From NCBI GenBank assembly GCA_030583765.1, contig CP129474.1, positions 471,168-519,347 of the forward strand: DNA of 48,180 nt, written 5' to 3'. The notes below the pieces were generated by a model. That model searched no databases. It saw nothing but the letters and a program-made list of their open reading frames with translations, and had not been told where the DNA came from. The position numbers and the translations under genes are program-made. Of the stretch, positions 16,495-39,026 are shown one piece after another. Each line of letters opens with the position of its first letter. Position 1 is the first letter of the stretch. The stretch comes from Minisyncoccota bacterium (GTDB lineage: Bacteria; Patescibacteriota; Minisyncoccia; 2-02-FULL-40-12; GWA2-44-9).

Positions 16495-16529
16495 GGGCGA
16501 TTAGTTCAGTGGTAGAACGCTGTCCTGAT
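16495..16529 (+). pseudogene. Extra copy of the tRNA-Ile(GAU) 5' half (acceptor to anticodon, 35 nt)
   Basis: GGGCGATTAGTTCAGTGGTAGAACGCTGTCCTGAT is identical to positions 1-36 of the complete gene at 16583. It diverges right after the anticodon. Confidence 0.85.
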
Positions 16530-16582
16530 CAAAGGCACTTTGTCACTGGTTCGTTCGGCTGTCATACAACCTTCTGTTTCGG

Positions 16583-16654
16583 GGGCGATTAGTTCAGTGG
16601 TAGAACGCTGTCCTGATAAGACAGAGGTCCTAGGTCCGATTCCTAGATCGCCCA
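16583..16654 (+). tRNA. tRNA-Ile (anticodon GAU), complete
   Basis: Manual cloverleaf: GGGCGAT/ATCGCCC acceptor, GTTC/GAAC D stem, CTGTC-CTGATAA-GACAG anticodon arm, CTAGG-TCCGATT-CCTAG T arm, discriminator A, no encoded CCA. Confidence 0.9.
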
Positions 16655-16684
16655 CATTCAGGTTGTATGCAGTCTCACTGCCAG

Positions 16685-16725
16685 TGATAAGACAGAGGTC
16701 CTAGGTCCGATTCCTAGATCGCCCA
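16685..16725 (+). pseudogene. Extra copy of the tRNA-Ile(GAU) 3' half (anticodon loop to 3' end, 41 nt)
   Basis: TGATAAGACAGAGGTCCTAGGTCCGATTCCTAGATCGCCCA is identical to the 3' part of the complete gene. It shares TGAT with the 5'-half copy. Confidence 0.85.
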
Positions 16726-16730
16726 CACGT

Positions 16731-16764
16731 AGTACATGATGTGCCTTGAGGCACATCATGTACT
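16731..16764 (+). other. Perfect 15-bp hairpin
   Basis: agtacatgatgtgcc-ttga-ggcacatcatgtact, with no T-run after it. Confidence 0.8.
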
Positions 16765-16777
16765 CGTAGCATTGGAA

Positions 16778-16889
16778 GATCTAGGAAGCGGACGCCGGAG
16801 CAATGCCCCGCAAGCTTGCGGGGCCGCGAGGCGGTGCCTAGCCCGAGACTTGCGGCGGCAAGTCGAGAGGCGAAGGAGATTCCTAGATC
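16778..16889 (+). repeat. GC-rich structured repeat, copy E1 (112 nt)
   Basis: Closed by GATCTAGGAA / TTCCTAGATC. Internal perfect hairpins are ccccgcaagcttgcgggg and gacttgc-ggcg-gcaagtc. It shares GCGGA.GC, CGCGAG, GCGGCGGC and GCGAAGGRGATTCC blocks with 38856-38964. Confidence 0.7.
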
Positions 16890-16894
16890 GCCCA
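16878..16894 (+). pseudogene. Third copy of the tRNA-Ile 3' end (T loop to discriminator, 17 nt)
   Basis: GATTCCTAGATCGCCCA followed by CA, as after the other two copies. Confidence 0.8.
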
Positions 16895-16905
16895 CAGATA
16901 GTGTT

Positions 16906-16978
16906 GGGCTCATAGCTCAGCTGGTAGAGCGCCTCATTTGCAATGAGGAGGTCACCGGTTCGAATCCGGTTGGGTCCA
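16906..16978 (+). tRNA. tRNA-Ala (anticodon UGC)
   Basis: Manual cloverleaf: GGGCTCA/TGGGTCC acceptor with the G3:U70 identity pair, CCTCA-TTTGCAA-TGAGG anticodon arm, ACCGG-TTCGAAT-CCGGT T arm. Confidence 0.92.
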
Positions 16979-17025
16979 CAAACCGTCCACTGACACTTCT
17001 TGTACTGCACACTGTGCGCAGTACA

Positions 17026-38725: not shown

Positions 38726-38796
38726 CGGGCTGTAGTATACCGGTAGTACGCGTCCATGGGGTGGATGTAGACCGGGTTCGATTCCCGGCAGCCCGA
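38726..38796 (+). tRNA. tRNA-Pro (anticodon GGG)
   Basis: Manual cloverleaf: CGGGCTG/CAGCCCG acceptor, GTAT/GTAC D stem, CGTCC-ATGGGGT-GGATG anticodon arm (G37), CCGGG-TTCGATT-CCCGG T arm, discriminator A. Confidence 0.8.
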
Positions 38797-38806
38797 CTTA
38801 TGAAAT

Positions 38807-38840
38807 AAAACAAGCACCATTTGGTGCTTGTTTTATTTTT
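38807..38840 (+). terminator. Rho-independent terminator after tRNA-Pro
   Basis: aaaacaagcacc-attt-ggtgcttgtttt followed by attttt. Confidence 0.75.
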
Positions 38841-38855
38841 ATGATATGGCGCTGT

Positions 38856-38964
38856 GGGGAATCGAAGGGCGGAGCGCTTCTGTTGTTCAGCAGAACAACA
38901 GCGCGAGCCCTGGCCCGGAGCGCGCGTTGAGCGGCGGCGAAACGCGACGCGAAGGGGATTCCCC
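38856..38964 (+). repeat. GC-rich structured repeat, copy E2 (109 nt)
   Basis: Closed by GGGGAATC / GATTCCCC. Internal hairpins are ctgttgttc-agca-gaacaacag and cgcgtt-(12 nt)-aacgcg. The right end GCGAAGGGGATTCC matches E1. Confidence 0.7.
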
Positions 38965-39026
38965 GCGGTGACCGAGCGCGAGCGAGGAAATACCAAAGCC
39001 AGTAGGCGTGGTGCCCGACAGTAGAT

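Follow-up and report, generated by a model that had tools for sequence, protein, structure and literature searches.

Two G+C-rich elements in a 48,180-nt stretch of the genome of a Minisyncoccota bacterium (contig CP129474.1, positions 471,168 to 519,347; hereafter the window, numbered from its first nucleotide) are two subfamily members of one family of gene-less folded insertion units. The elements, E1 (16778-16889) and E2 (38856-38964), have a G+C content of 66-68%, against 52% for the window. At one and the same tRNA gene, a whole unit may be found, missing or exchanged for another, both between sister species and within one species. We regard them as a variant of tRNA-docking insertion elements, of a type that we did not find described in the literature. 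The interpretation that we favour, and to which we give an even chance, is that these units are gene-less, non-autonomous mobile DNA of the Paceibacteria (candidate phyla radiation, CPR) that docks on tRNA tails and possibly recombines as a folded single strand.

Structure and copies of the family

The order of parts is the same in every copy: a tRNA gene, a hairpin, an antisense arm, a core and a sense arm. The unit measures ~115-125 nt, or 170-220 nt counting the leading hairpin. The antisense arm is complementary to the tRNA from position 54 to about position 68, and the sense arm is a copy that starts at G57 of the tRNA and runs 2-3 nt beyond the discriminator, usually without CCA. The sense arm matches its tRNA at 19/19 positions in E1, at 20/20 in the copies L040 and E2', and at 19/20 in L122b. 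A distance of ~90 nt separates the two arms, which pair over 8-15 bp in six of the seven copies known to us. On the plus strand, E1 and E2 each fold into a closing stem and a three-way junction (-60.8 kcal/mol, z = -5.5, and -63.1 kcal/mol, z = -5.2, respectively, relative to dinucleotide shuffles). The closing helix is GATCTAGGAA/TTCCTAGATC in E1 and GGGGAATC/GATTCCCC in E2, and the two elements share the motifs CGGAGC, GCGAG, GCGGCGGC and GCGAAGGRGATTCC.

An earlier reading of the window, made from the sequence only, had described E1 and E2 as two copies of a structured repeat next to tRNA genes. All the features it listed were found, namely both closing helices, the shared motifs and a perfect hairpin unrelated in sequence between E1 and E2. 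Its proposal that the closing helix is built of T-arm and acceptor sequence was borne out, as the helix pairs an antisense arm with a sense arm, both of them copies of the tRNA tail. Its account was nevertheless partial: it missed that the arms are antisense and direct copies of the neighbouring tRNA's own tail, that the unit includes an upstream hairpin, and that the whole unit is an insertion, absent or replaced at the same site in relatives. The extents it gave were too small, both copies belonging to longer units with the upstream hairpin.

We surveyed ~212 kb of loci on contigs of Paceibacteria, gathered by pattern scans and protein-anchored contig look-ups. Five further copies were found, from four other Paceibacteria lineages, one of which is a conspecific strain. 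Each of the seven distinct copies follows immediately on the 3' side of a tRNA gene, on the strand of that gene, and units stand behind seven of the roughly 19 distinct tRNA genes in these loci. The sequence-only reading had allowed that E1 and E2 might be the only copies; the homologues in other genomes show that they are not. From E1, L040 and L121 only we built a covariance model (R1), which retrieved E2 with 68.8 bits (E = 4e-18) and L122b with E = 1.5e-6; E1 and E2 are thus one structured family tied to tRNA genes, as had been proposed. Searching the window with R1 gave no significant match besides E1 and E2, and a broader covariance model (R2) gave no further copy in the surveyed loci.

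Wider searches returned little else. When genome contigs were scanned for the pattern GGAGC..GCGAG..GCGGCGGC..GCGAAGG, one of the 120 matches listed was real (L040), the other listed ones being chance matches in GC-rich genomes. A stricter scan of metagenomes gave two real loci, one of them the contig of L040, and a scan of IMG/VR with a looser 5' motif gave noise only. There was no match of the E1 unit (blastn) among 50,697 phage and 72,556 plasmid records, and none in exact-protein look-ups of the window's DUF1761 and L28 proteins. The comparison with Rfam suggested by the sequence-only reading yielded no family for E1 or E2: in the window, only rRNA and tRNA models of Rfam 15 exceeded the gathering threshold, and at E <= 10 nothing credible lay over either element, including RtT (RF00391) and the tRNA-like, tmRNA, self-cleaving ribozyme and HEARO/omega models. 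Full-text literature searches did not find a description of the family.

The fold is conserved beyond its sequence. In an alignment of the seven copies, fitted to the model, 90.4% of the pair cells are standard pairs and 25 of the 35 pairs change on both sides; none of 500 shuffles attains any of five measures. When the 3' partner was slid by 1-3 columns as a control, pairing was 33-42% and the covariation score went from 0.59 to at most 0.13. The unpaired segments CGGAGC...GCGAG and GCGAAGG are kept and tandem G.A pairs recur (13 cells), features that look RNA-like. One hairpin of the core, P2b, behaves differently. Its AGCN loop is kept, and its stem columns are only about 45-50% identical between any two copies. 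Even in the orthologous pair E2 and E2', 12 of 27 columns of P2b (44%) are identical, against 86% for the rest of the core. Such near-total replacement between orthologues is not gradual covariation. The suggestion that helices are kept while their sequences are swapped therefore holds by the pair counts and does not hold, as a description of covariation, for this first hairpin.

Units at their tRNA genes: presence, replacement and anatomy

The insertion of the E1 unit can be read from its empty site. In the sister species (L124 and L125), the unit is missing exactly between the repeats and the sequence reads ...GATTCCTAGATCGCCCAC|TGGTAGCGTTGGGCCC, where the window has 169 extra nucleotides between two copies of GATTCCTAGATCGCCCAC. 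The order UDG, nested tRNA-Ile, tRNA-Ala and DUF1761 is common to the window and these contigs, whose proteins in the region are mostly 80-95% identical to those of the window. The E2 site varies as well. The sister species (L128) has the orthologous E2', bounded by the exact 20-nt repeat GATTCCCCGCGGCCCGACTT. In a third species (L161), whose NDK is 93% identical, tRNA-Pro is followed at once by TTTATC..., the hairpin, arms and core all being missing, and the E2 core is also missing in L165 and L144. A conspecific strain (L153), with 97.8% identity over 11.3 kb, has at the E2 site behind tRNA-Pro(GGG) a different hairpin, different arms and a core of the E1 type (90 bits with R1), and this replacement is seen in two metagenomes. 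The tRNA gene is intact at every unit.

Cores of the E1 type were found behind tRNA-Ile, tRNA-Arg (L040) and tRNA-Glu (L121). With the arms and P2b set aside they are 92-97% identical, and the differences all lie in one stem and are compensatory. The FtsZ of the L121 host is 63.5% identical to that of the window, compared with 96% for the sister species, and the orthologous cores of E2 and E2' are just 86% identical. Other contigs of similar depth in the organism's metagenomes carry E1-like cores (~88% identical) with different antisense arms. Since E1 is missing in the sister species and near-identical cores occur in distant hosts, these comparisons indicate a probable recent arrival or horizontal spread rather than ancient residence.

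The two units differ in how closely their arms follow the resident tRNA (Table 1). The sequence-only reading had placed E1 between tRNA-Ile copies and tRNA-Ala; tRNA-Ala is indeed downstream, and on the other side E1 adjoins an extra 3' half-copy of tRNA-Ile rather than the complete gene. The frame of the unit is ambiguous within the 18-nt direct repeat GATTCCTAGATCGCCCAC, and the first 12 nt of the sense arm pair with the antisense arm. The junction bases after the helix are GGA in E1, compared with GAA in the other copies, which mirrors the T-loop of tRNA-Ile (TCC where TTC is normal). The mirrored T-loop bases, 54-56, have no partner in the sense arm, so the antisense arm follows the real tRNA and does more than complement the sense arm. 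A strain variant has compensatory changes in the leading hairpin of E1 (A16739G and T16756C, A-T to G-C). In E2, the closing helix is longer than first described, at ~14 bp (38850-38863 with 38957-38970), and the variable hairpin is at 38882-38899 with the loop AGCA, the P2b columns compared between copies covering 38879-38902. The complement of its antisense arm, TTCGATTCCCCACAGCGC, matches 16 of 22 positions of the tRNA-Pro tail, in the window's own gene and in that of the sister species alike. Its sense arm agrees with the tRNA-Pro allele of the sister species and not with that of the window: GATTCCCCGCGG and CCCGAC, when joined, are the sister species' tRNA-Pro tail, and in the window they are split by a 45-nt insert.

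Table 1. Features of the E1 and E2 units in the window and location of the other copies
Feature	Position or source	Strand	Basis or remark
tRNA-Ile(GAU), complete gene	16583-16655	+	ARAGORN; Rfam tRNA model, 70.9 bits; unusual T-loop TCCGATT
Extra 3' half-copy of tRNA-Ile	16685-16727	+	Repeat search; last 19 nt (16709-16727) are the proximal direct repeat S1
E1 insertion unit, 169 nt	~16726-16894	+	Empty site in sister species (L124, L125)
Leading perfect hairpin of E1 unit, 16 bp, 2-nt loop	16731-16764	+	Inverted repeat
E1 antisense arm, TGGAAGATCTAGGAAGCGGAC	16773-16793	+	18/21 complementary to tRNA-Ile positions 53-73; inverted repeats
E1 core	16794-16877	+	Fold; covariance models R1 and R2; pair counts; 3' end is GCGAAGGA
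E1 core, arm P2			CGCC/GGCG, internal loop GGA/GA, variable hairpin 16805-16824 (loop AGCU)
E1 core, arm P3			CCU/AGG and GCC/GGC, hairpin 16847-16864 (loop GGCG)
E1 sense arm (S2)	16878-16896	+	Exact copy of tRNA-Ile 57-73 and 2 trailer nt
tRNA-Ala(UGC), downstream neighbour of E1 unit	16906-16979	+	ARAGORN, Rfam
tRNA-Pro(GGG), docking tRNA of E2	38726-38797	+	ARAGORN, Rfam
Leading hairpin of E2 unit, 13 bp then T-run, terminator-like	38807-38834	+	Present in sister species, absent from L161
E2 antisense arm	38849-38866	+	Complement is TTCGATTCCCCACAGCGC
E2 core	38867-38956	+	Architecture as in E1; fold; model R1
E2 sense arm, first part, GATTCCCCGCGG	38957-38968	+	Equals tRNA-Pro 57-68 of the sister species' allele
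45-nt module inside E2 sense arm, TGACCGAGCGCGAGCGAGGAAATACCAAAGCCAGTAGGCGTGGTG	38969-39013	+	Sequence comparison; L144 has the same module
E2 sense arm, end, CCCGAC	39014-39019	+	Right boundary of the composite insertion; comparison with L128, L153, L161
Copy L040 (same contig as L122)	Paceibacterota metagenome-assembled genome		Behind tRNA-Arg(UCG); sense arm is the exact last 20 nt including CCA
Copy L121	Metagenome contig		Behind tRNA-Glu(UUC)
Copy L122b	L122, 6266-6154	-	Behind tRNA-Pro(UGG)
Copy E2'	L128, sister species		Behind tRNA-Pro(GGG)
Copy in L153	Conspecific strain		Behind tRNA-Pro(GGG)

Several other observations concern these loci. Insertions are found within the units themselves: in one strain (run X19) the E1 core has a 20-nt hairpin-forming insert, GCTTGCCTGCCGTCAGGCAG, after 16840, and in the L121 copy the sense arm is interrupted by a comparable insert of 17 nt, TGCCTGTGGCAGGCAGG. 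It seems, then, that these elements repeatedly receive small palindromes rich in G+C. The 45-nt module in the E2 sense arm is missing from the sister species. It recurs in the distant L144, where it follows tRNA-Pro with no E2 core, and a 21-kb contig of equal depth from the same metagenome carries a second copy. Upstream of E1, tRNA-Ile(GAU) is nested in its own halves (16495-16727), in the order 5' half (16495-16529), 53-nt spacer, full gene, 28-29-nt spacer and 3' half (16685-16727). The halves overlap by TGAT, and the nested arrangement is kept in the sister species. The two spacers can pair in a helix, CATACAACCT/AGGTTGTATG (16563-16572 with 16660-16669), which in the sister species has two compensatory changes giving TGCAACCC/GGGTTGCA. 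In L121 (286-316) the displaced tRNA-Glu tail ends in ...GGGGTTACCA and the gene reads ...GGGGTCAaaa, so that only the displaced copy encodes the CCA. From 5150 onward in L040, the element behind tRNA-Arg is directly upstream of a gene whose N-terminus resembles, by eye, a CCA-adding enzyme or poly(A) polymerase, probably by coincidence. The public short-read contigs of the organism break repeatedly at the tRNA-Ile repeats (~16698) and at the palindrome after E2 (~39025), and assemblies of the E1 and E2 loci are thus fragile. Finally, L165 (16373-17755) has a bAvd gene and an RVT_1 reverse transcriptase, resembling a diversity-generating retroelement, between EF-G and EF-Tu.

Explanations for the units

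At their size the units could not encode a protein, no conserved reading frame is present in the 169-nt segment of E1, and the flanking genes (UDG, DUF1761, NDK, L28, M50) are housekeeping genes. We favour mobile DNA because the order of intact target, body, inverted copy, ~90 nt and direct copy is the residue expected from integration of a folded single strand. The direct repeat always begins at T-loop position 56|57. It ends 2-3 nt past the discriminator, usually without CCA, which argues for a DNA-level event at the gene and not for the copying of a mature tRNA. By pairing with each other, the antisense and sense arms would let one strand of the element recreate the duplex of the tRNA gene tail. 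An enzyme encoded elsewhere might then recombine this folded site with the tRNA gene, the crossover being at T-loop position 56/57. We infer in this scheme a single-stranded intermediate, the crossover point, a recombinase acting in trans and a matching of the arms to each new tRNA.

Some observations sit poorly with mobility. The sequence-conserved core, the purine-rich loops, the G.A pairs and the co-orientation with the tRNA suit a functional RNA at least equally, and the counts of G.U and A.C pairs (2 and 4) give no signal of which strand is functional. The two arms of the L153 copy do not pair together. The tRNA-Pro of the window has diverged from the arms of E2, which means that the match to the resident tRNA was not maintained. 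No recombinase, circular form or excision junction was seen in the assembled contigs examined, and we know of no mechanism that rewrites both arms for a new tRNA. A more specific form of the mobile-element interpretation, which we put forward tentatively and think rather unlikely, is a protein-less element that bears its own guide: a three-way-junction scaffold with an antisense arm of ~12-20 nt that chooses a tRNA T-loop and 3' tail by pairing. An enzyme of the host, or one that is unlinked, would insert such an element as folded single-stranded DNA or as RNA at T-loop position 56/57, duplicating the tRNA tail. An altered antisense arm would redirect it to another tRNA, and the P2b hairpin and the inserts of 17-45 nt could be by-products or cargo of the same machinery.

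The RNA-like features would be explained if the units were resident cis-acting RNA modules co-transcribed with the tRNA, a possibility to be taken seriously even if we consider it on the unlikely side. The antisense arm would then pair with either the real tRNA tail or its decoy copy, making a two-state transcript, or the element would form a minihelix resembling a substrate of RNase P, RNase Z or the CCA-adding enzyme; the outcome could be control of tRNA 3' maturation or a stable small RNA. Presence and absence would result from precise deletion between the direct repeats, and the similarity of cores from purifying selection. All copies being co-oriented with the tRNA and directly 3' of it fits such a role, and so do the strong covariation, the kept purine-rich unpaired loops and the recurring tandem G.A pairs. 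When a tRNA is folded together with its element, the minimum free energy structures join the antisense arm to the real T-arm, and the distal copy to the 5' acceptor strand of the tRNA. The T-loop bases 54-56 mirrored in the antisense arm of E1, partnerless in the sense arm, and the retention of orthologous E2 and E2' in two species point the same way. However, a strong terminator-like hairpin with a T-run separates E2 and E2' from the tRNA, the same tRNA of close relatives does without the module, and a conspecific strain has a different subfamily at the same site. Cores that are 92-97% identical behind different tRNAs, in hosts with 63.5% FtsZ identity, are also hard to reconcile with residence. 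Metatranscriptome contigs from four runs gave no coverage of E1, although contigs cannot show absence.

Explanations drawn from known recombinases fare worse. The units could be decayed scars (attR remnants) left by kilobase-sized prophages or islands that a tyrosine integrase inserted in tRNA genes. Integration in a tRNA gene classically leaves the tRNA intact, with a direct copy of its 3' end some way off (PMC4383910, PMC9897764), and the left boundary of the repeat is in the T-loop, a known integrase sublocation. Yet the same bounded, structured unit of ~115 nt recurs behind five different tRNAs with covarying helices, and independent decay would not converge on one such unit; scars moreover carry no antisense copy of the attachment (att) site at a fixed distance. 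No integrase gene or remnant of one was found nearby, and the unit resembles neither the phage (50,697) and plasmid (72,556) records nor the IMG/VR contigs. We therefore find a scar origin highly improbable. By analogy with the serine-recombinase elements of Patescibacteria, the units may instead be miniature derivatives whose arms would be two att sites and whose core could be inverted or excised in trans, which we also judge improbable: no recombinase was found in the loci examined, the orientation of the core relative to the tRNA is identical in the seven distinct copies, arguing against frequent inversion, and serine integrases normally leave repeats of 2 bp, not of 18-20 bp.

Other candidates were tried and set aside. 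Coding potential was rejected, as the variable hairpin differs by 1 nt in length and in sequence while the flanking core is identical. An invertible segment is disfavoured by the single orientation of the 7/7 distinct copies. An origin of the sense arm from tRNA-primed reverse transcription or from a mature tRNA is disfavoured as well, 2-3 nt of the gene's trailer being copied and the CCA usually missing (L121 is the exception).

Known systems and significance

The closest known layout is that of islands and prophages integrated in tRNA genes. Islands of this kind are recognised by an intact tRNA gene and a displaced copy of its 3' end, the logic of Islander (PMC4383910), and the T-loop is an integrase sublocation according to Williams 2002 (PMC100330) as cited in PMC9897764. 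The units share with them the intact tRNA, the displaced copy at the far end, the T-loop boundary and the empty sites in relatives, and in E1, E2', L040 and L122b an intact tRNA and a direct repeat of 18-20 nt bound the insert. They differ in that the insert has 170-220 nt and no genes, instead of 3-100 kb with an integrase (the 169-nt segment of E1 has neither integrase nor kilobase cargo). They also contain a fold that is conserved and covaries, and ~90 nt ahead of the direct copy of the target they have an antisense one.

The phage CTX-phi offers a parallel for the arms. In its genome, two inverted dif-like sites pair, host recombinases exchange one pair of strands, and replication completes the integration (PMC4246890, PMC3442271). 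As in the attP(+) site of CTX-phi and of integrative mobile elements exploiting Xer recombination (IMEX), the units have two inverted target-like sites ~90 nt apart that pair into a stem mimicking the target, located at one end of the integrated element, and they encode no recombinase; the integrated layout (target, body, inverted site, ~90 nt, direct site) is also alike. In contrast, their target would be a tRNA tail and not dif, they are ~40 times smaller, and the intervening 90 nt form a conserved three-way junction; here, a single-stranded form and its enzyme are hypothetical.

The attC sites of integrons are likewise imperfect inverted repeats of ~60-140 nt in which structure is kept over sequence and a folded single strand is used by an enzyme acting in trans. 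They flank cassettes in arrays by intI and their inner sequence is not conserved, whereas the units have a conserved core sequence and arms that copy the target tRNA. The units are single copies among housekeeping genes and tRNAs with no reading frame inside; as they lack an integron context, they are not attC sites. Miniature inverted-repeat transposable elements (MITEs) are also small, gene-less, multi-copy and structured, with terminal inverted repeats, flanking direct repeats and insertion polymorphism. A MITE has inverted repeats of its own, which correspond to a transposase, and it duplicates 2-10 bp of its target. In the units, each copy has different arms that fit the tRNA next to it, and the 18-20-bp duplication ends at the tRNA terminus; they are not MITEs because their inverted repeats are derived from the target and change with it. 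RtT RNA of E. coli, encoded in the 178-bp repeats of tyrT (RF00391), resembles them as a structured non-coding unit directly behind a tRNA, each unit ending in the last ~19 nt of that tRNA. The RtT units are in tandem and confined to enterobacteria, and to our knowledge neither an antisense arm nor insertion polymorphism has been reported for them. The units described here are not RtT, because RF00391 gives no match (E <= 10).

Members of the CPR (Patescibacteria) have tiny genomes with little room for selfish DNA. The units nevertheless stand behind seven of the roughly 19 distinct tRNA genes sampled here and turn over within a species. In practice, the annotation of tRNAs and pseudo-tRNAs in CPR genomes, and the interpretation of assemblies that break at repeats, should allow for them. 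Should the units be functional RNAs, a major radiation of uncultivated bacteria would have a layer of tRNA-linked regulation that is so far undescribed. Should they be mobile, no smaller site-specific insertion elements would be known, and they would show how, in nature, a target can be recognised by an antisense arm that is rewritable and adjoins a conserved scaffold. This would matter for the biology of mobile elements, for genome engineering and for the question of why tRNA genes serve universally as docking sites.

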